Of a DNA stretch of 64,000 nt, positions 3,372 through 56,996 are shown piece after piece. The DNA comes from Escherichia coli (GTDB taxonomy: Bacteria; Pseudomonadota; Gammaproteobacteria; Enterobacterales; Enterobacteriaceae): NCBI RefSeq assembly GCF_030384885.1, contig NZ_CP128613.1. One strand, given 5' to 3'. Both the position numbers and the translations under genes were made by a program. A model generated the notes under the pieces. That model was not told where the DNA came from and made no database searches. It saw nothing but the letters and a program-made list of their open reading frames with translations. Numbering within the stretch: position 1 is the stretch's first letter; the number at the start of each line of letters is the position of its first letter.

Positions 3372-4172
3372 TCAACGTAGCGAACGACTTTCCATCGCCT
3401 CGATAAGCACAGCATCGTGTTTCAGCGTTTGCCATGCCTGGGTGACTTCTGCAGGAAAATCAACGTGAACGATAAAATCTCGCCCACGGGGACCATAGCC
3501 ATCACTATCATCGCGTAAACGTGGCAGCTCGCCAGTGAGTAGTGAGAGATAACGCTCAACCGGCCATAATCCTTCTAACTGGTTAATAAAGATTACACTG
3601 TCTTCGTTGTTTCCTAGCTGAGGAACGAATCCGGGATAACTTAACCAGCGAGGTGCATCTGGATTGTCCCCGGTCATACGGCGGAACGTCGCCATCGTGC
3701 GCCGCTGCATGGTGGGGTCCTGAACAACGATAGCCGTATGAACTCTTTCTACGGCCTGATTCAATAGCGCGATGCTAAAGCGTGCGTTTTCACCGCAGTT
3801 TGTTGACTGGTCTTCAATCCAGATTTTTTCATGCGGAATGTGCCAGAACTGATGAGCGATATCCGCCAGGATGGTAGCTTCTGCTCTGCCAGTGGTGCGG
3901 ATAGTGTTGTAGTGCGGATGCTGTGCGATGGCGCTATACAAAAAAGTTGTCGAGTGACCGATACCACCACTAATCAGTAGAGGAATTTGCTGATCGCGGG
4001 CAATCTTACATGCCGCATCGATAGTCGGTATAACCGCATTGCCTGCAAGGATCACGCAATCGGCCTGATACGGCACCTCACCGGAGAAATCATCCTGCGC
4101 CAGCCACTGACCGATAACATTTATGGCATCTATGGTTGCCGGCGAAAGCGTCGGAAACGGGGTAATGTTCAT
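3372..4172 (-). CDS. ydcF: DUF218-family protein YdcF
   Basis: 266-aa ORF in the syntenic position between aldA and hrpA. Confidence 0.8.
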
Positions 4173-4443
4173 GGTTCCTCCTTATCGTTCCCTTAAGAAT
4201 ACTGCGTGAGATAATAATGAGAAGCGGAGCACTCTGAAAGGAGGAAGTCGTATTTCCTTAACCGCCACTCCGCAAGCCTGACATATCTTTTAAGGAAATG
4301 CTGTAGATAAACATTATTCATCTTGCAGCAGAGAATTGTATTTTTCTGAATTCCTGAATTTTTGCCCTTACCGTTTTAGAATTAATAAAAAACCCGGCGC
4401 TAAATGCTTACCGGGTTTTAGATTTATCAGGCAAATAGCAGCG

Positions 4444-7400
4444 TTAACCGCTAATCTGCTCCATCGCCTGTAGAATACGCTTATCTGAAATCGGATAAGG
4501 TGTACCGAGTTGTTGGGCAAAATAGCTGACGCGCAACTCCTCTATCATCCAGCGTATCTCTTTCACGTCTTCATCCTCACGACGTGCAGGCGGCAGTTTG
4601 TTGATCCATTGCTGCCACGCCTGCTGGACGTTTTCAACTTTCAGCATCTGAGCACGGTCACGGTGCGGGTCAACCGCCAGTTTTTCCAGACGCTTTTCAA
4701 TCGCCTGCAAATAACGCAGCGTGTCGCCCAGGCGTTTGAAGCCATTACCAGTGACAAAACCGCGATACACCAGCCCACTCATCTGCGCTTTAATGTCAGA
4801 AAGCCCCAGCGCCATGGTCATATCCACCCGCCCTTTCAGGCGTTTGTTGATATTGAACACCGCCGTAAGGATTTGCTCTACCTGCTTCGCAATATCCACC
4901 ACCGTGTCGTTCAGTTCAGCGCGGACTTTTTCATGAAGCGCAGCAAAGCCCTCTTCCGTCCAGACCGGGCCGCCCGCCTCATCAATCAACTTATCAACAC
5001 CGCAGGAGATGCAGTCGTCAATGAGATCCAGCACTTTACCGTACGGGTTAAAGTAGAGACCAAGCTTCGCTTTGTTCGGCAGTTTCTCATGCAGATATTT
5101 AATTGGCGACGGAATATTCAGCAGCAGCAAGCGACGCAAACCACGCCACATAGCCTGCTGTTGTTCCTGCGGGTTATCAAAAAGCTTAATCGCTACGCTG
5201 TCACGCTCATCCACCAGCGCAGGCCAGGCCTTCACTTTGTAGTTGCCACGTTTCTGCTCGTAGTGATCCGGTAAATTACCGAAGCTCCAGATATGTAACC
5301 CGCTTTGCTCAATACCATCATCGGCAACGGCGGAAAGCGTTTCCTGCACTTTGCCTTTCAGGGCGTCTTTCAGATCCTGTAATGAGCGCCCTTCTTTTAG
5401 CTTCTTATTTTTGTCATCCACCACACGGAAGGTGATTTTCAGGTGATCGGGCACCTGATCCCAGTGCCAGTCTTCGCGGTCAACGGTAACGCCGGTCATC
5501 CGCCGTAGCTCGCGCTCAAGGCTGTCGAGCAACGGCAGTTCCAGCGGCGTGACGCGACCTAAAAACGCTTCGGCGTAGTTTGGCGCGGGCACAAAATTAC
5601 GCCGTACCGGTTTCGGCAACGATTTGATTAGAGCAATCACCAGTTCACGGCGCAGGCCGGGGATCTGCCACTCAAACCCGCTTTCCTCAACCTGGTTAAG
5701 TAATGGCAGCGGAATATGCACGGTCACACCGTCAGCATCCGCCCCCGGCTCAAACTGATAGCTTAAACGCAGCTTGAGATTGCCCTGATGCCAGAAGTTC
5801 GGGTAATCCAGCTTGCTGATTTTTTCCGCCCCTTCTTTGATCAACATGCTCTTTTCAAAGTTGAGCAAATCAGGTGTTTCGCGGCTGACTTTTTTCCACC
5901 AACTATCAAAGTGACGTGCAGAGATCACATCATGGCTGATGCGCTGGTCGTAAAACTCAAACAACGTTTCGTCATCCACCAGAATATCGCGGCGACGTGA
6001 TTTGTGTTCCAGTTCTTCCACTTCTGCCCGTAGTTTCAGGTTTTCACGGAAGAATGCGTGACGCGTCTGCCAGTCACCTTCCACCAGCGCGTGGCGAATA
6101 AAAAGTTCACGACACAGCGCCGGATCAATCTGGCTGTAGTTGACCTTACGCGCAGCAACAATCGGCAACCCGTAAACGGTGACTTTTTCAGTTGCCATCA
6201 CCGCGCCCTGCGCCCGTTCCCAGTGCGGTTCGCTGTAGGAGCGTTTAATCAAATGCTGGGCAACTGGCTCTACCCATTCTGGATCGATGCGTGCCGCAAT
6301 GCGCCCCCACAGGCGGCTGGTTTCTACCAGTTCCGCCACCATTGCCCATTTCGGCGGCTTCTTGAATAAACCAGAACCGGGGAAGATGGAGAAACGCGCG
6401 TTACGTGCGCCGGTATATTCCTGTTTATCGGCATCTTTCATCCCGATATGCGAAAGCAAACCGGTCAGTAAGGCGATGTGAATTTCGCGATACTCCGCCG
6501 GTTCGCTGTTAACCGGAATGCCAAGTTCTTTCACCACCTGGCGCAACTGGGTGTAGATGTCCTGCCATTCGCGCACGCGCAGATAGTTAAGGTAATCGGT
6601 ACGGCAAAGGCGACGGAAGGCGTTTGAAGAGAGCGCCTTTTGCTGCTCGCCGAGATAATTCCACAGATTTACAAACGCCAGGAAGTCGGATTCTTTATCG
6701 TGGAAGCGACGATGTTTTTCGTCCGATGCCTGCTGCTTGTCCATTGGCCGCTCACGCGGGTCCTGAATAGAGAGCGCGGAAGTGATAATCATCGCCTCAC
6801 GCACGCAGCCATGTTTCTGCGCTTCCAGCACCATTCGCGCCAGACGAGGATCGACTGGCAGTTGCGAGAGCTGGCGACCGAGCGGCGTCAGTTTATAGGC
6901 GCTGGCCTGTTCATCAGTGGTGATCGCGCCCAGCTCTTCGAGCAGACGCACGCCATCCTGGATATTGCGTTTATCCGGCGCTTCTACAAACGGGAACGCA
7001 GCGATATCGCCCAGCCCCAGCGCGGTCATCTGCAAAATAACCGAGGCCAGGTTGGTACGCAGAATCTCCGGATCGGTAAACTCCGGGCGCGAGAGGAAAT
7101 CGTCTTCGGAATAAAGACGAATGCAGATCCCTTCTGACACACGACCACAGCGGCCTTTACGCTGATTAGCTGAAGCCTGCGAAATGGGCTCAATCGGCAA
7201 ACGCTGCACTTTGGTGCGATAGCTGTAGCGGCTGATACGCGCCGTACCTGGGTCGATAACGTATTTAATCCCCGGCACGGTCAGCGACGTTTCCGCGACG
7301 TTAGTCGCCAGCACAATGCGCCGTCCGCTGTGCGACTGGAAGACGCGGTTCTGCTCGCTGTTCGAAAGCCGTGCATAAAGCGGAAGAATTTCCGTATGGC

Positions 7401-34771: not shown

Positions 34772-35707
34772 ATGTCGCAAAATCAAGAAATTAGTAAGAA
34801 AGAACAATACAATCTGAACAAATTACAAAAACGTCTGCGTCGTAACGTGGGCGAAGCCATTGCTGACTTCAATATGATTGAAGAAGGCGATCGCATCATG
34901 GTTTGCCTCTCCGGGGGTAAAGACAGCTATACCATGCTGGAGATTCTGCGCAATTTGCAGCAAAGCGCGCCAATCAATTTTTCGCTGGTGGCTGTTAACC
35001 TCGATCAAAAGCAACCGGGCTTCCCGGAACACGTTCTGCCCGAGTATCTTGAAAAGCTGGGCATTGAGTACAAGATTGTGGAAGAGAACACTTACGGTAT
35101 CGTGAAAGAGAAGATTCCGGAGGGCAAAACCACTTGCTCACTGTGTTCTCGTCTTCGTCGCGGAATTCTTTACCGTACCGCAACGGAACTGGGAGCGACG
35201 AAGATCGCGCTGGGTCACCATCGTGACGATATCCTGCAAACGTTGTTCTTAAATATGTTCTACGGCGGCAAGATGAAAGGTATGCCTCCGAAACTGATGA
35301 GCGATGATGGCAAACATATTGTGATTCGTCCGCTGGCCTACTGCCGCGAGAAAGATATTCAGCGCTTTGCCGATGCAAAAGCGTTCCCGATTATTCCGTG
35401 CAACCTGTGCGGTTCACAACCTAACCTGCAACGTCAGGTGATTGCTGACATGTTGCGTGACTGGGATAAACGTTATCCGGGGCGTATCGAGACGATGTTC
35501 AGCGCGATGCAGAATGTGGTGCCGTCGCATCTGTGCGATACCAACCTGTTCGATTTCAAAGGCATTACCCACGGTTCTGAAGTGGTTAACGGGGGTGATC
35601 TGGCGTTTGATCGCGAAGAGATCCCTCTACAACCGGCGGGTTGGCAGCCTGAAGAAGATGAAAATCAGTTGGATGAGTTACGACTGAATGTGGTTGAAGT
35701 GAAATAA
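34772..35707 (+). CDS. ttcA: tRNA 2-thiocytidine(32) synthetase TtcA, prophage-free allele
   Basis: 311-aa ORF with PP-loop SGGKDS and Cys motifs; the N-terminus [14 protein letters not shown] differs from the recalled K-12 Rac-lysogen form MQENQQITKKEQYN. Confidence 0.9.
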
Positions 35708-35788
35708 CCCGGATAGCGCCCGATGCGCAAGCTTATCGGGCTACTCTTATGGAGGCCGGATAAGACGCGGCCAGCGTCGCATCCGGCA
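35708..35788. repeat. REP/BIME element (two REP units)
   Basis: cccggatagcgcccgatgcgcaagcttatcgggcta and gccggataagacgcggccagcgtcgcatccggca between the convergent ttcA and dbpA. Confidence 0.7.
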
Positions 35789-35835
35789 ATCCCGAAGAAG
35801 ATGTTTACTCTTGCACCCTGCGATTCAACATTTCA

Positions 35836-37209
35836 TTATTTTAATAACCGCACCCGGCACGTTTTTCCTTTAATCTTCCCGCCCTGTAACTGTTTCCATG
35901 CTTTATGAGCAACAGCCTGACGCACCGCAACATAGACATGCGCCGGATGCACGGCGATTTTGCCAATATCTGCGCCATCAAGCCCGATATCTCCTGTCAG
36001 CGCACCTAATACATCACCCGGGCGCATTTTGGCTTTTTTCCCGCCATCGATACATAACGTTGCCATTTCTGCTTCCAGCGGCACAATGGAACTATTAACT
36101 GGCGGCGTTTGCCAGTTAAGTTTTATCTGCAACATGTCAGAAATGATATTGGCCCGCTGTGCTTCTTCCGGGGCACAGAAACTGATCGCCAGACCGCTAT
36201 TTCCTGCACGCGCTGTACGCCCGATGCGATGTACATGAACTTCAGGGTCCCACGCCAGTTCAAAGTTCACTACCAGCTCAAGCGATTTAATATCAAGACC
36301 ACGCGCAGCAACATCCGTCGCAACCAGCACACGAGCGCTACCGTTAGCAAAACGTACCAGGGTCTGATCGCGGTCACGTTGCTCCAGATCGCCATGTAAC
36401 GACAATGCACTTTGCCCTATGTCATTCAGCGCGTCGCAGACAGCCTGACAATCTTTTTTGGTATTGCAAAACACCACGCAAGAGGATGGCTGATGCAAAC
36501 TTAATAACCGTTGCAACAGCGGAATTTTGCCTTTGCTGGATGTCTCATAAAATTGTTGTTCAATGGGAGGCAGAGCATCTGTTGAGTCAATTTCAATCGC
36601 CAATGGATCGCGTTGCACTCGTCCGCTGATTGCGGTGATGGCTTCCGGCCAGGTTGCCGAAAACAGAAGCGTCTGTCGAGATGCTGGCGCAAAACGGATA
36701 ACATCATCAATGGCATCGCTAAATCCCATATCCAGCATGCGATCGGCTTCATCCATCACCAGCATATTCAACGCATCCAGTGATACCGTGCCTTTTTGCA
36801 GATGGTCCAGCAAACGACCCGGGGTTGCCACGATAATATGCGGCGCATGTTGCAACGAATCACGCTGCATACCGAACGGTTGACCACCGCACAAAGTCAA
36901 AATTTTGGTATTTGGCAGAAAACGCGCCAGCCGACGCAATTCACCTGCCACCTGATCCGCCAGTTCACGCGTAGGGCACAGCACTAAAGCCTGGGTCTGA
37001 AATAGCGACGCATCAATTTTCTGTAGCAGCCCGAGGCCAAAAGCCGCCGTTTTGCCGCTGCCGGTTTTCGCCTGCACGCGAACATCTTTTCCGGCAAGGA
37101 TCGCCGGAAGCGCGGCGGCCTGCACCGGCGTCATAGTTAAATAACCCAACTCATTAAGGTTCGTGAGTTGGGCGGGAGGCAAAACATTCAGGGTAGAAAA
37201 AGCGGTCAC
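35836..37209 (-). CDS. dbpA: ATP-dependent DEAD-box RNA helicase DbpA
   Basis: 457-aa ORF, GTG start; Q-motif, Walker A AKTGSGKT, DEAD box VMDEAD, SAT. Confidence 0.93.
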   Translation of the reverse strand: MTAFSTLNVLPPAQLTNLNELGYLTMTPVQAAALPAILAGKDVRVQAKTGSGKTAAFGLGLLQKIDASLFQTQALVLCPTRELADQVAGELRRLARFLPNTKILTLCGGQPFGMQRDSLQHAPHIIVATPGRLLDHLQKGTVSLDALNMLVMDEADRMLDMGFSDAIDDVIRFAPASRQTLLFSATWPEAITAISGRVQRDPLAIEIDSTDALPPIEQQFYETSSKGKIPLLQRLLSLHQPSSCVVFCNTKKDCQAVCDALNDIGQSALSLHGDLEQRDRDQTLVRFANGSARVLVATDVAARGLDIKSLELVVNFELAWDPEVHVHRIGRTARAGNSGLAISFCAPEEAQRANIISDMLQIKLNWQTPPVNSSIVPLEAEMATLCIDGGKKAKMRPGDVLGALTGDIGLDGADIGKIAVHPAHVYVAVRQAVAHKAWKQLQGGKIKGKTCRVRLLK

Positions 37210-48098: not shown

Positions 48099-49049
48099 AT
48101 GGCTATGTATCAGAACATGCTCGTTGTTATCGATCCTAACCAGGACGACCAACCAGCATTGCGGCGAGCTGTTTATTTACATCAACGGATTGGTGGCAAA
48201 ATTAAAGCCTTTTTGCCGATCTATGACTTCTCATACGAAATGACCACCCTGCTCTCCCCGGACGAACGTACCGCTATGCGTCAGGGCGTCATCAGCCAGC
48301 GAACAGCCTGGATCCACGAGCAGGCAAAATATTATCTCAATGCTGGCGTTCCCATTGAAATTAAAGTGGTCTGGCATAACCGTCCATTCGAAGCCATCAT
48401 TCAGGAAGTGATCAGCGGCGGACACGATTTGGTGCTAAAAATGGCGCACCAACATGACCGTCTGGAAGCGGTGATTTTTACGCCAACGGACTGGCATCTG
48501 TTACGCAAATGCCCAAGCCCGGTGTGGATGGTGAAAGACCAGCCGTGGCCGGAAGGGGGTAAGGCGCTGGTGGCGGTGAATCTCGCCAGTGAAGAGCCGT
48601 ACCATAATGCGCTCAATGAAAAACTGGTTAAAGAGACGATCGAACTGGCGGAACAAGTTAATCATACCGAAGTTCATCTGGTTGGCGCTTATCCGGTAAC
48701 GCCAATTAATATCGCGATTGAACTGCCGGAATTTGATCCGAGCGTTTATAACGATGCCATTCGTGGGCAACATTTGCTGGCTATGAAAGCCCTGCGGCAG
48801 AAATTCGGTATTAATGAAAACATGACACACGTTGAAAAAGGTCTACCAGAAGAGGTGATTCCTGATTTGGCGGAGCACTTACAGGCGGGGATTGTGGTTC
48901 TGGGAACGGTCGGACGCACCGGTATTTCAGCAGCATTCCTCGGCAACACGGCGGAACAGGTGATTGATCATCTTCGCTGCGACCTGCTGGTCATTAAACC
49001 TGACCAGTATCAGACCCCCGTTGAACTGGATGACGAAGAAGACGATTAA
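48099..49049 (+). CDS. uspE: universal stress protein E (tandem Usp domains)
   Basis: 316-aa ORF starting [18 protein letters not shown]. Confidence 0.93.
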
Positions 49050-49069
49050 CGACTCTTCAATAACTGACA

Positions 49070-49099
49070 AGGCCCGAGTTAACGGGCCTATTTTTTACT
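49070..49099. terminator. bidirectional intrinsic terminator between uspE and ynaJ
   Basis: Hairpin ggcccgagttaacgggcc flanked by an A/T run on each side. Confidence 0.65.
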
Positions 49100-49356
49100 T
49101 ACTGCTCTTCGCCGCCAAGGAAATAAATTCCCAACGGGATTGCCAGCAACACAGTAAAGACCAGGCTATAAACAAAAATCATTGATGACTGAATCACATA
49201 CATTGATGTCGTCCACTCAGACAGCGGAATATTGTACTGTTCTATCACGCCGCCGATGGTCGCGCGAGTCACAACCGACGCCGCAATAATGAAAACCGCC
49301 AACAAACCAAAGAGAAATTTCTTCCCTTTCGCTGACTTCAGTTTCGCCATAATCAT
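49099..49356 (-). CDS. ynaJ: small inner-membrane protein YnaJ
   Basis: 85-aa ORF with two hydrophobic helices. Confidence 0.8.
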   Translation of the reverse strand: MIMAKLKSAKGKKFLFGLLAVFIIAASVVTRATIGGVIEQYNIPLSEWTTSMYVIQSSMIFVYSLVFTVLLAIPLGIYFLGGEEQ

Positions 49357-49599
49357 GATGTAATCCTTGTGCAGACAAATTTCTTGTTACCTAACAGTAA
49401 CAATACCATGACATTTCACCGTTGTCTGCTCTGAAAACCTCACCTCTTAGCTGGATTTACAATCAACGCATTGATTAGTTAGCTAATGTTGCTACTTCCT
49501 TCCCTGACTATTGATGATCTGAATGAATTGTCGCGGTAAAATAGCCCCGCCAGGGGTTTCCGGCATGACGACAATTATCTGGAGGAGCCTGATAAAACA

Positions 49600-50631
49600 A
49601 TGATCGCTGAACTGTTTACAAATAATGCGCTTAATCTGGTCATTATTTTCGGTAGCTGCGCAGCATTGATTCTGATGAGCTTTTGGTTTCGCCGCGGAAA
49701 TCGTAAAAGAAAAGGATTTTTATTCCATGCGGTGCAATTTTTAATCTACACCATAATTATCAGTGCTGTTGGTAGCATCATTAATTATGTTATAGAAAAC
49801 TACAAACTCCAATTTATCACTCCAGGCGTTATCGATTTTATCTGTACGTCCCTGATTGCGGTTATTCTGACGATTAAGTTATTTCTGCTGATTAATCAGT
49901 TTGAAAAACAGCAGATTAAAAAAGGTCGCGATATCACCAGTGCGCGGATTATGTCGCGTATCATCAAAATCACCATTATTGTGGTACTTGTTTTGCTTTA
50001 TGGCGAACATTTCGGTATGAGCCTTTCTGGCTTGTTGACCTTTGGTGGTATTGGTGGTCTGGCTGTCGGTATGGCCGGTAAAGATATTTTGAGTAACTTC
50101 TTTTCCGGGATTATGCTCTATTTCGACCGTCCTTTTAGTATTGGCGACTGGATCCGTTCACCGGACAGAAATATCGAAGGTACAGTAGCGGAAATTGGCT
50201 GGCGAATTACCAAAATTACGACCTTTGATAATCGTCCGTTATACGTCCCGAACTCGCTGTTTTCGTCTATCAGCGTAGAAAACCCGGGGCGAATGACCAA
50301 CCGACGTATTACCACGACAATCGGTTTACGTTATGAGGATGCGGCAAAAGTGGGAGCCATTGTCGAAGCCGTACGTGAGATGCTTAAAAATCACCCAGCC
50401 ATCGACCAGCGACAAACCTTACTGGTTTATTTCAACCAGTTTGCTGACTCGTCATTGAATATTATGGTTTATTGCTTTACCAAAACCACAGTATGGGCTG
50501 AATGGCTTGCCGCCCAGCAGGATGTTTATTTGAAGATTATCGATATTGTACAGTCACACGGCGCGGATTTCGCGTTCCCAAGCCAGACGCTGTATATGGA
50601 TAACATTACACCACCAGACCAGGGTCGTTAA
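49600..50631 (+). CDS. ynaI: MscS-family mechanosensitive channel YnaI
   Basis: 343-aa ORF; N-terminal TM helices followed by an MscS-like beta domain. Confidence 0.9.
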
Positions 50632-50676
50632 TTCAGACATCACTGGCGTTACCCACAAGGGTAACGCCAGTTCACA

Positions 50677-52290
50677 TCAATGTTTCACAATATACATAGT
50701 CCGGCTATACGCCACATCTTCCGGGTTATTAATGGGATAACCTTTCAGCCACGGCTTGATTAATCGTCCATTGGTATATTGATAAATTGGTGCAATCGGT
50801 GCTTGCTCCATGAGGATTTTTTCTGCCGCGTTGTAATCGGCATTACGCGCTTTAACGGTATTTTCCGTCGATGCCTGGGCCAAAACTTTGTCGTAGGCCG
50901 GGTTGTTAAAACGTGAAATGTTCCCTGAATGCGTTGACGTTAATAATGTCAGGAAGGTGGAGGGTTCATTATAATCCCCCACCCACGAGGCGCGGATAAC
51001 ATCAAAATTACCTGTATTACGACTATCGATATAGGTTTTCCATTCCTGATTTTGCAGTTTGACATCTACACCAAGGTTCTTTTTCCACATCGATGCCACA
51101 GCAATCGCAATTTTTTGATGGTTTTCTGAAGTATTATACAAAAGCGTCAGCTTCAGCGGTTTTTGCGGACCATAACCGGCTGCGCTCAACAAAGTTTTTG
51201 CCTGCGCATTCAGTTCTTCCTGACTCATTTGTTCAAACGGCGAAGGCTCCGGCGTGAATCCGGCAGTAACATCTGGCGTAAAATGCCACGCTGGTTTTTC
51301 GCCCGTCCCCAACACTTTTTCGGTCATCAGGCGGCGATCTATCGTCATACTTAATGCCAGACGAACGCGCTGATCTGCCGCCGGCCCTTTTTGCGTGTTA
51401 AACGCATAATAATAGGTCCCGAGCTGCGGCGGTGTATAAACCTGCCCCGGAATATCCTTCAACAGCTTCTGATACATATTTTTGGGGAAGGATTCGGTGA
51501 TATCAATATCCCCCGCGAGATAACGCTTAGTGGCTGCGGATTCCTGATTAATTGGCAGGAAGGTCACTTTTTGCAACACCGTTTTGGCGTTATCCCAATA
51601 ATGAGTATTTGGCACCACGACCAGTTTTTCATTGACTACACGCTCTTTAAGAACATAAGCGCCATTGCCGACCAGATTTCCGGGTTTCGTCCACTCTTTC
51701 CCGCTTTCTACGTTAGCTTTTTGCACCGGGAAGAAGGCAAAATTGGCTGTTAAATTCACAAACCACGGCAACGGTTTATCAAGCTGGATTTTCAAAGTAC
51801 GGGCATCAACCGCGGTGACGCCTAGCTGATCAGGCGTAGCTTTACCATCAATAATCGCCTGTGCGTTGTTGATTCCCGCCAGCGCGGCAAACCAGGCAAA
51901 CGGCGACAACGTTTTTGGGTCAACCAGACGTTGCCAGCTGTAGACAAAATCCTGTGCCGTTACCGGTGTGCCATCCGCCCATTTTGCGTTATCGCGCAGG
52001 GTGAAAGTCCAGATACGGTTGTCATTACTTTTCCACTGAGTCGCAACGCCGGGGACAATCTCCCCTTTCTCGTTCTGATTCACCAGTCCTTCAAAAAGAT
52101 CGCGAATGACCTGAATCTCTGGCAGACCCACGGCTTTAGCGGGATCCAGCGACGCAGGCTCATCTTTAATATGGCGCACCAGCTCCTGCTTCTCTGCCAG
52201 TACTGTGCCGCTCGGAACTTCTGCAGCATACGAAAGAGAAATGCTGCTGACCAACAGCGCACAACACGTGACTGAAACAGAGTGCTTCAT
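50677..52290 (-). CDS. mppA: periplasmic murein tripeptide-binding protein
   Basis: 537-aa ORF with signal peptide; family-5 solute-binding protein, OppA paralogue. Confidence 0.93.
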   Translation of the reverse strand: MKHSVSVTCCALLVSSISLSYAAEVPSGTVLAEKQELVRHIKDEPASLDPAKAVGLPEIQVIRDLFEGLVNQNEKGEIVPGVATQWKSNDNRIWTFTLRDNAKWADGTPVTAQDFVYSWQRLVDPKTLSPFAWFAALAGINNAQAIIDGKATPDQLGVTAVDARTLKIQLDKPLPWFVNLTANFAFFPVQKANVESGKEWTKPGNLVGNGAYVLKERVVNEKLVVVPNTHYWDNAKTVLQKVTFLPINQESAATKRYLAGDIDITESFPKNMYQKLLKDIPGQVYTPPQLGTYYYAFNTQKGPAADQRVRLALSMTIDRRLMTEKVLGTGEKPAWHFTPDVTAGFTPEPSPFEQMSQEELNAQAKTLLSAAGYGPQKPLKLTLLYNTSENHQKIAIAVASMWKKNLGVDVKLQNQEWKTYIDSRNTGNFDVIRASWVGDYNEPSTFLTLLTSTHSGNISRFNNPAYDKVLAQASTENTVKARNADYNAAEKILMEQAPIAPIYQYTNGRLIKPWLKGYPINNPEDVAYSRTMYIVKH

Positions 52291-52472
52291 AAGTTACCCT
52301 CAAACCTGCGTTAATAATCATGCGTAATTATTTGTTTCGCCTTAAAGAAATGCAAACAACTTCCGGCAAAAAAGTGATACAAGATCGATAACATAGCGTT
52401 GAAGAAAAGGATTTGATAATCCGCAAAATTTGCACAACACTGCCTGTAATACTTCCTGAACCAGAGACGATC

Positions 52473-54259: not shown

Positions 54260-54763
54260 ATGTCACAAACCGTTCATTTCCAGGGCAACCCGGTTACAGT
54301 CGCCAATTCCATCCCGCAGGCGGGTAGCAAAGCGCAGACTTTTACTCTCGTGGCAAAAGATCTGTCTGACGTCACCCTCGGTCAGTTTGCGGGTAAACGC
54401 AAAGTGCTGAACATTTTCCCGAGTATTGATACCGGTGTTTGCGCCGCATCAGTACGTAAGTTTAACCAACTGGCAACCGAGATCGACAACACCGTTGTGC
54501 TGTGTATCTCTGCCGATCTGCCGTTCGCCCAGTCTCGTTTCTGCGGCGCAGAAGGTCTGAACAACGTTATCACCCTCTCCACTTTCCGTAACGCTGAATT
54601 CCTGCAAGCCTACGGTGTGGCAATTGCTGATGGCCCACTGAAAGGTCTGGCAGCGCGTGCCGTTGTGGTTATCGATGAAAATGACAATGTGATTTTCAGC
54701 CAGCTGGTTGATGAAATCACCACCGAGCCGGATTACGAAGCAGCTCTGGCTGTACTGCGCTAA
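54260..54763 (+). CDS. tpx: thiol peroxidase
   Basis: 167-aa [20 protein letters not shown]... with peroxidatic Cys (SIDTGVC). Confidence 0.95.
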
Positions 54764-54778
54764 ACAACTGTGCCGTTC

Positions 54779-54818
54779 ACTGAATCACCACCGGTGAACG
54801 GCAGTTTTTGATCTACCA
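54779..54818 (+). terminator. tpx intrinsic terminator
   Basis: Hairpin gccgttcac...gtgaacggc followed by AGTTTTTG. Confidence 0.7.
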
Positions 54819-54907
54819 GTCCCATTATTTTCCAGAGTTCCTGCCACTATTCCCCCTAACCGTTGTGCATTAAGATTGCTCTTTGCCATTATTGGCCCAG
54901 CGGAGTG

Positions 54908-56959
54908 ATGACTATTATGGATGATAAACAAATTACGGTCTGGCTTAAACACAATTGCTGTTCAACGGACATTCCTGCCATTGCCGAGGCACTAACGAAC
55001 CATGCAGAATGGCTTTTAGAGCTAGCGCCAGATCCTATTGAACAAGGTTGTTCATGTTTACCGCCGACAGCTGCAGCCGGTATTTTTCTTGGCGCAGCGG
55101 CGATGGTTCACTGCGGCGAGGCTAGTGGTGCAGAAACCTGGCTCGAAGCAGCCATTACTGATTACCATTTCTTTAATCCAAATGGATATAGTTCATGGAG
55201 AGGCAGTACGCCTGTTTTTACAGCATTATCGCGTTACCCGGCATTAAGAATGGTGTTATTTAACGCCGCTTGCGCAATGGAAGACTGGAATAAAGCATCC
55301 GCTGTTCTTGAATCGCTTTTCCATGCCAGCGATGTAACGGAAGATAACCCTGTCGCCCCCAATTTTACCCCTTATGCGCTGAAAGCGTTTATCGCGGATT
55401 ACCACCCGTTAGGGCCTGCTTATTATGATGAAACCTGGTTGCTGGCAAAACAAGCGTGGTTAATTAATGCGGGCGTTCTGGATGAGCGAACCTGTAATAC
55501 CTGGAAGCAATATACCCGCCATTTGCGCCATTTGATCCATAATGCACAGTTTTCCGATGCGATCTCTTTTGTACGCAGTAAAAAAGAACCATTAAATCAT
55601 ATCCATACCTACTCAGACTTTTATCTCTATGCGATTGGTTTATTTTCTTCTACTGATCAGCTAAGTGAAGCGCTAACCTGGGTAAAACAATTAATCCGCA
55701 ACAATGATGGTCATTTCCATGATCTTTTCGTTTCAACTGGCGCAAAGCGCCGAATAAAGCCTGAACTTAGTACCTTGCTGAATAATCTCTTGTACAGCGC
55801 AGAGTTTCAGGCGTTGCAGGATAAATATCTCACCGTCGGACATGATGTTGTGCATTCTGGTCCCTTCATGTCACTTTATGAAAAGGTTCTTGGCGGTAAG
55901 TCCCGAAAGCGCTGCGCGATTAGTCGAAAATTAATCTCACCCGGCGAAGCGGTTTATGAATATCGTCAGCTGGATAGTGTGGAATATATTGCAGCGAAAG
56001 CGGCCTTTCAGACATCTGAGCTAAATAATATCGCCCACCGGCATCATAATGATAGTTATCAGTGGCATGAATTTGCCGTCCAATGGCCTCGTCGGGGTTC
56101 ACTTTCTCACCCAGATATTGCCCGTTATTTGTTTGAGCGCCAGGAAGGAAAATGCTTTGATGCCGCAGAGTTTATACAACTGATTGCGGAACCGTTTGTC
56201 TTTCCGATGCGTTTCATATGGGTTGCCGGGTTGTCCTTTGAATTACATCAGTATCCGGATGCCTATTTCGTAAATGACAATATGGCGGGTGAATTTGTTA
56301 ATCTCTGCTGGATGGCTATGAAATGCGGACATGCTGGCGACATTTTCAAACAACTGGCCCACGAGCCGCATGACGTTGCTGACCCTATTTACGCCATGCT
56401 CGCCACGTTTGACCGCGCTGATTGCCGTAGCGCCGCCGCCGCGCACTTTGGACAACCGGAACTACCGGAAATAATGGCACTGGCTTTCAGTTCGAGGTTA
56501 TCGCTCGACAGCGTCCTTACCATCGCTGAGTTTGGTAAAAATCAGCCGCGATTTTCACATGCGCTAGCAACGGCCCTCCTGCGTTACAACCTGCACATCT
56601 ACTCAAACTATATGCCGCAGGTTAACTGGTACCTTCAGGGGCTGGAACACTATGCTTTGGCAAAAGGCGGTCAACTTTTAAATTTCTTTGTGCATATTCC
56701 AGAACAAATTCCCGTTCTGGCGACCATGCTGGAACATGGCGTATTAGTGCGTGGGATCGGTGAAGGTGCCTATGATGGTTATGATAATTCAGCAAATTCA
56801 TTTCATCATGCCGCCGTGATGCACTGCCTCACGCACGCGCCGGAAAAAGTCCGCTACTGGATGGAAACACCCTGGATTCAGAACTATTTAGTGAATGCGC
56901 CGCTGCGTCAAACGGCGCGCCATGTGGAAGCCTGGCATAAAAAGTTTGGCATCAAATGA
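54908..56959 (+). CDS. uncharacterised ~680-aa protein encoded between tpx and tyrR; no family recognised
   Basis: Uninterrupted frame 54863..56959 (TTG at 54863; likely ATG at 54908 or 54917, with GGAG at 54902). No signal peptide, TM segment or Walker A seen; His/Cys-rich patches (HNCCSTD, GCSCLPP, RHLRHLIHN, HRHHNDSYQWHEF, KCGHAGD). Confidence 0.7.
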   Translation: MTIMDDKQITVWLKHNCCSTDIPAIAEALTNHAEWLLELAPDPIEQGCSCLPPTAAAGIFLGAAAMVHCGEASGAETWLEAAITDYHFFNPNGYSSWRGSTPVFTALSRYPALRMVLFNAACAMEDWNKASAVLESLFHASDVTEDNPVAPNFTPYALKAFIADYHPLGPAYYDETWLLAKQAWLINAGVLDERTCNTWKQYTRHLRHLIHNAQFSDAISFVRSKKEPLNHIHTYSDFYLYAIGLFSSTDQLSEALTWVKQLIRNNDGHFHDLFVSTGAKRRIKPELSTLLNNLLYSAEFQALQDKYLTVGHDVVHSGPFMSLYEKVLGGKSRKRCAISRKLISPGEAVYEYRQLDSVEYIAAKAAFQTSELNNIAHRHHNDSYQWHEFAVQWPRRGSLSHPDIARYLFERQEGKCFDAAEFIQLIAEPFVFPMRFIWVAGLSFELHQYPDAYFVNDNMAGEFVNLCWMAMKCGHAGDIFKQLAHEPHDVADPIYAMLATFDRADCRSAAAAHFGQPELPEIMALAFSSRLSLDSVLTIAEFGKNQPRFSHALATALLRYNLHIYSNYMPQVNWYLQGLEHYALAKGGQLLNFFVHIPEQIPVLATMLEHGVLVRGIGEGAYDGYDNSANSFHHAAVMHCLTHAPEKVRYWMETPWIQNYLVNAPLRQTARHVEAWHKKFGIK

Positions 56960-56967
56960 ACGTTGCC

Positions 56968-56990
56968 GCTGCGCCTGAACGGCGCAGCCA
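56968..56990. terminator. bidirectional hairpin between the convergent unknown ORF and tyrR
   Basis: gctgcgcc tgaac ggcgcagc perfect inverted repeat. Confidence 0.5.
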
Positions 56991-56996
56991 GCACAA

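Follow-up and report, generated by a model that had tools for sequence, protein, structure and literature searches.

The ynaJ-ynaI spacer and the IS5F locus of K-12

IS5 always duplicates its 4-bp target. The closest described counterpart of the locus analysed here is the IS5F/insH4 locus of Escherichia coli K-12, in which the MG1655 chromosome (NC_000913.3) carries an annotated 'insertion sequence:IS5F' at 1396044-1397238 (1195 bp), including insH4 (b1331), between ynaI (b1330) and ynaJ (b1332). BW25113 contains 11 IS5 copies, and the copy between ynaI and ynaJ is among them and is 100% identical to wild-type IS5 (2024, PMC11677980). The wbbL::IS5 insertion (rfb-50) and the other BW25113 copies (PMC11677980) are likewise K-12 IS5 elements seated at CTAA/CTAG in sites that are empty elsewhere in E. 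coli, although IS5F differs from other K-12-specific IS5 insertions in being intergenic and disrupting no gene. The same study constructed a K-12 strain from which IS5F is precisely deleted. The earlier note on this DNA had placed an IS5 (insH) between ynaJ and ynaI in K-12, and the annotation and the published inventory both agree with it.

The stretch of E. coli DNA under study (the window, 64,000 nt in full) contains the same flanking genes and the same spacer, which makes the target tetramer identifiable to the base; it differs from the K-12 IS5F locus in lacking the element and in having a single CTAA where K-12 has two. The local gene order is abgT, ogt, fnr, uspE (+), ynaJ (-), ynaI (+), mppA (-), with the abgT-mppA stretch running in the reverse orientation of the K-12 map. 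The 243 bp of the spacer is the exact distance from the ynaJ start codon (ATG at 49354-49356 in a reverse-strand ORF) to the ynaI start codon (Table 1). No ORF of at least 40 aa was found within the spacer, and the two ORFs touching it sit mostly in ynaJ. The description in the earlier note of 243 bp of intergenic DNA, with no transposase ORF and no IS5, was thus exact in its coordinates and in agreement with the ORF list and with the blastn and tblastn searches. Relative to K-12, YnaJ shows 0/86 and YnaI 3/344 amino-acid differences; the spacer is 0.8% different at the nucleotide level, and ynaI and mppA are about 4% different, nearly all of it synonymous. Spacer identity across E. coli ranges from 95 to 100% and reaches 100% with the closed genome NZ_CP027579.1.

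Removal of IS5F and one CTAA from the K-12 flanks yields the window spacer with 241/243 identical positions, the two differences being the adjacent bases 49395-49396. Global alignment of the K-12 flanks with the spacer required a single 4-bp gap, located at the junction, and blastn of the K-12 region against the window returned two pieces overlapping by 4 bp at 49479-49482, an overlap that has the form of a target-site duplication signature. The alignment to the K-12 ynaI-insH-ynaJ region that had been suggested as a check therefore came out as both flanks aligning and overlapping by exactly the 4-bp duplication. At the junction, K-12 reads AGCTAA[IS5F]CTAACTAATC and the window reads AGCTAACTAATC; in longer context, K-12 reads ...ATTAGCTAA[IS5F]CTAACTAATC... 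and the reverse strand of the window reads ...ATTAGCTAACTAATC... The flanks are joined around a single copy of the duplicated tetramer, as in an unoccupied insertion sequence target, and no excision scar was seen at the site. The hallmarks of an IS5 insertion were absent: CTAA occurs once at the target rather than as a 4-bp duplication (YTAR) around an element, and no element of about 1.2 kb that is bounded by inverted repeats GGAAGGTGCGAA... and encodes an InsH DDE transposase is present.

The CTAA/TTAG tetramers reported earlier in the spacer are real and number five, namely, CTAA at 49391 and 49483 and TTAG at 49447, 49475, and 49479. They are about six times as dense as in the window on average, and five or more occur in only 0.4% of 243-bp tiles. 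The enrichment is not significant, since spacers shuffled at the local 42% G+C give similar counts (mean, 3.4 tetramers; 25% reach five). The relevant point is that one of these tetramers is the exact K-12 target, rather than how many there are.

Table 1. Features of the ynaJ-ynaI locus and of the ydbA locus (window positions)
Feature	Position	Strand	Description
ydbA-locus gene	17395-22932	-	Single uninterrupted 1845-aa ORF; BigA_N and BigA_beta domains
ynaJ	49099-49356	-	85 aa; DUF2534 membrane protein; Pfam PF10749, E 4.5e-41
ynaJ-ynaI divergent intergenic spacer	49357-49599	.	243 bp, uninterrupted; from ORFs and annotation
Inverted repeat GCAGACAA/TTGTCTGC	49371-49429	-	8-nt arms at 49371-49378 and 49422-49429; just upstream of ynaJ start
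Tetramer cluster TTAGTTAGCTAA	49475-49486	.	Three IS5-type target tetramers clustered; last eight bases form a perfect palindrome
FDAARGOS_943 insertion point TA(G)	49476-49478	.	Unoccupied in the window; FDAARGOS_943 junctions (slash marks the element boundary) GATTAG/GCTGTGTCCC... and ...GGGACACAGCC/TAGTTAGC
K-12 IS5F target tetramer CTAA (TTAG on +)	49479-49482	-	One copy, unoccupied; CTAA duplicated by IS5F in K-12
Inverted repeat AATTGTCG/CGACAATT around CCCCGCCAGGGG	49526-49576	+	Arms at 49526-49533 and 49569-49576; upstream of ynaI Shine-Dalgarno GGAGGAG
ynaI	49600-50631	+	343 aa; MscS-family mechanosensitive channel; Pfam MS_channel 1st, 2nd, and 3rd domains

Distribution of the empty and occupied sites

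Two probes were used to count the empty site in 5426 complete RefSeq genomes of E. coli: the one of 120 nt, with the site in its middle, was uninterrupted in 5057, and the one of 281 nt, spanning the whole spacer, in 5055. The empty site, present in about 93% of the genomes, is the normal state for E. coli, and the genomes that carry it are diverse, with O157:H7, O111:H8, O6:H16, APEC O2:K1:H7, and many others represented. The left junction of the K-12 insertion (120-nt probe, at least 80% matched) was found in 355 genomes. The 74/355 junction-bearing genomes inspected comprised the 60 best-ranked left-junction genomes and 14 sampled right-junction genomes of full identity, and all 74 had K-12-like chromosomes of 4.17-4.79 Mb (4.46-4.74 Mb for the 14 right-junction genomes). 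Wherever their names were informative, they were K-12 derivatives (MG1655, W3110, BW25113, DH5alpha, DH1, C600, J53, NEB 5-alpha, and O16:H48). The count of 653 from a 54-nt junction-only probe was discarded, because the probe had also seeded on other IS5 copies beside CTAA and on a plasmid sequence of 88% identity; of its matches, only the 14 of full identity were retained. In about 12 further genomes the spacer was interrupted otherwise, and one of them (FDAARGOS_943) was characterised. The empty site is thus common and, among the 74/355 occupied genomes inspected, occupation is confined to one lineage.

These data indicate that the window almost certainly preserves the ancestral, unoccupied ynaJ-ynaI spacer and that K-12 is the exception. 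In the scenario that we favour, one IS5 copy (IS5F, insH4) would have transposed into the mid-spacer CTAA in the lineage leading to K-12 and duplicated these 4 bp, and the window strain would never have acquired it, retaining a single tetramer in a continuous 243-bp spacer that would hold the start regions of both divergently transcribed genes with nothing deleted. How the sequences relate, which tetramer was the target, and how frequent each state is among genomes are matters of direct observation; that the event was an insertion in K-12 and not a loss here we infer from the genome distribution and not from a rooted phylogeny. The argument is one of parsimony, as the empty site is widespread and the junction occurs in K-12 types.

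Precise excision of an IS5 formerly present in the window lineage, restoring one CTAA, would yield exactly the observed sequence, so that sequence alone is not discriminating. Such an event is nevertheless extremely improbable, since it would require loss in essentially every other lineage where one gain in K-12 suffices: about 93% of genomes, from diverse lineages, are empty, all of the occupied genomes inspected are K-12 derivatives, and the window is without any IS5. An assembly artefact, in which a real IS5 copy was collapsed out as a repeat, might be considered on the grounds that short-read assemblers sometimes drop repeats. However, collapse of a K-12-like locus would keep both CTAA copies (CTAACTAACTAA), whereas the window has CTAACTAA, and the spacer matches thousands of independent closed genomes besides its perfect match in NZ_CP027579.1, which leaves this explanation scarcely any credibility. 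Precise excision and assembly collapse were both rejected. IS5F between ynaI and ynaJ is a known K-12-specific polymorphism, viewed here from the empty side. Its significance is very small and its practical use is as a strain marker, but K-12 is atypical at ynaJ-ynaI, which calls for caution in studies of ynaI and ynaJ regulation.

Insertion sequences in the window and the ydbA locus

The earlier note had extended the absence of IS5 to an IS-free region, citing an intact ydbA in support. The window is indeed IS-free. Searches of the whole 64-kb window with K-12 IS5F by blastn gave only chance matches of at most 16 nt; tblastn with InsH (InsH4), IS2 InsD, and IS30 InsI gave no match; and no IS2, IS30, or IS5 DNA was found across it. 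The window is collinear over 64 kb with NZ_CP027579.1 (strain 2013C-4282; human stool, USA) at 99.81% identity with one 1-bp indel, and the PGAP annotation of that counterpart lists 49 genes and no transposase. The largest unannotated gap, 646 bp, is too small for an intact insertion sequence of the usual E. coli kinds.

The argument from ydbA held only in part. The gene at this locus is uninterrupted (Table 1), unlike K-12 ydbA, which IS2D and IS30C interrupt, but it is not simply K-12 ydbA minus its insertions. Its alignment to K-12 ydbA is limited to the final 1316 nt, at 86%, so it is a divergent allele and the K-12 IS2 and IS30 insertion points are without a nucleotide counterpart in it. 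Its predicted product is a BigA/YdbA-type autotransporter with the passenger domain of a different allele. Between ydbL and this gene (22933-23905), the K-12 fea/tynA/paa cluster is absent.

Putative regulatory features of the spacer

On the ynaJ side, the GCAGACAA/TTGTCTGC repeat encloses a perfect palindrome, TTGTTAC-N6-GTAACAA, at 49384-49403, and the RNA fold of 49440-49357 on the minus strand has a free energy of -22.7 kcal/mol (z, -3.25). This repeat may possibly represent a leader hairpin or an operator. Here the window lineage departs from most E. coli only by a CA/AC swap at 49395-49396, within the central 6 nt of the palindrome. The palindrome half-sites presumably bear a loose resemblance, judged by eye, to the TyrR box (TGTAAA-N6-TTTACA, with G-N14-C kept). 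The ynaJ-leader hairpin region was 95-99% identical in five other strains, a variation too low for covariation. On the ynaI side, the fold of the leader containing the second inverted repeat (Table 1) was no better than shuffles on either strand (z, -1.28). An Rfam scan of 48900-49900 on both strands at E <=1 gave no match to a structured RNA, and a simple sigma-70 consensus scan of 49000-49700 gave no promoter-like site; scanning of the same interval revealed a weak terminator-like hairpin at 49565-49548 on the minus strand, in addition to the uspE terminator. Taken together, the motifs suggest that the spacer consists of ordinary, putatively regulatory DNA.

A second insertion near the K-12 target and the question of expression

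FDAARGOS_943 (NZ_CP065615.1), which is not a K-12 strain, carries in the same spacer a 915-bp IS5-family element, at 4059-4973 of the locus examined, whose transposase is frameshifted, whose inverted repeats are GGCTGTGTCCCTTAAT, and which has a duplication of 2-3 bp, TA(G). The element, which is absent from the window, has no similarity to IS5F and was inserted 1-3 bases away from the K-12 target within the same TTAGTTAG run. The same genome also has a 10-bp deletion corresponding to window positions 49510-49519 and IS4-family elements flanking the neighbourhood.

That K-12 and FDAARGOS_943 carry unrelated IS5-family elements at points 1-3 bases apart raises the idea that the TTAGTTAGCTAA cluster is a recurrent IS5-family landing site at which insertions alter ynaI or ynaJ expression, so that the difference between the empty and the occupied state would be functional. 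We consider this unlikely. An interruption other than that of K-12 occurs in only about 12/5426 genomes, so the site is hardly a hot spot, and the tetramer count is no higher than composition predicts. With respect to expression, two points favour an effect: IS5 is an activator of adjacent promoters at bgl, glpFK, fucAO, and flhDC, and in K-12 the ATG codons of ynaI and ynaJ lie 121 and 126 bp, respectively, from IS5F. Against it, ynaI is still transcribed in K-12, its mRNA exceeding that of mscS by qRT-PCR although YnaI expressed from the chromosome escaped detection (PMC3508906), and no regulator-binding sites emerged from Reg-Seq of the K-12 ynaI promoter fragment (PMC7567609). A literature search found no paper tying IS5 to ynaI or ynaJ expression. 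That IS5F, by splitting a conserved ynaJ-ynaI control region, alters the expression of YnaI or YnaJ is therefore possible but unsupported, and we regard it as improbable. If it were true, K-12 data on YnaI abundance would be unrepresentative of natural E. coli with an intact spacer, and the conserved palindrome and hairpin that precede ynaJ would have a genuine cis-regulatory role.

Other features of the window

Several further differences from K-12 were observed in the window. The Rac prophage is absent (34772-37209), and ttcA adjoins dbpA. In the mppA-mpaA spacer (52291-52472), the K-12 genes ymjC-ymjD-ycjY-pgrR (about 2.4 kb) are absent; a 30-nt stretch of the window at the junction (52348-52377) aligns to both edges of the K-12 ymjC-pgrR segment, which suggests a short repeat at this junction. 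Between tpx and tyrR, a 2.24-kb insert (54758-56998), in which G+C dips to 0.43, stands in place of 54 bp of K-12. It contains one 680-aa ORF (54917-56959, plus strand) that had no match in Pfam, NCBIfam, PADLOC, PHROGs, or PDB sequences, and the insert, found in only 30/5426 complete E. coli genomes, carries a rare accessory gene.

Over the 2.4 kb from 48400 to 50800, only 4/5422 genomes were at least 99% identical to the window and most were 96.5-97% identical, placing the window strain, on nucleotide identity, in a rare lineage at the ynaJ-ynaI locus. In the comparison with strain 2013C-4282, almost all of the 119 differences lie between about 55.5 kb and the 1-bp indel at about 61 kb, where the positional comparison ends, and this cluster of differences from about 55.5 kb looks like a recombination tract.
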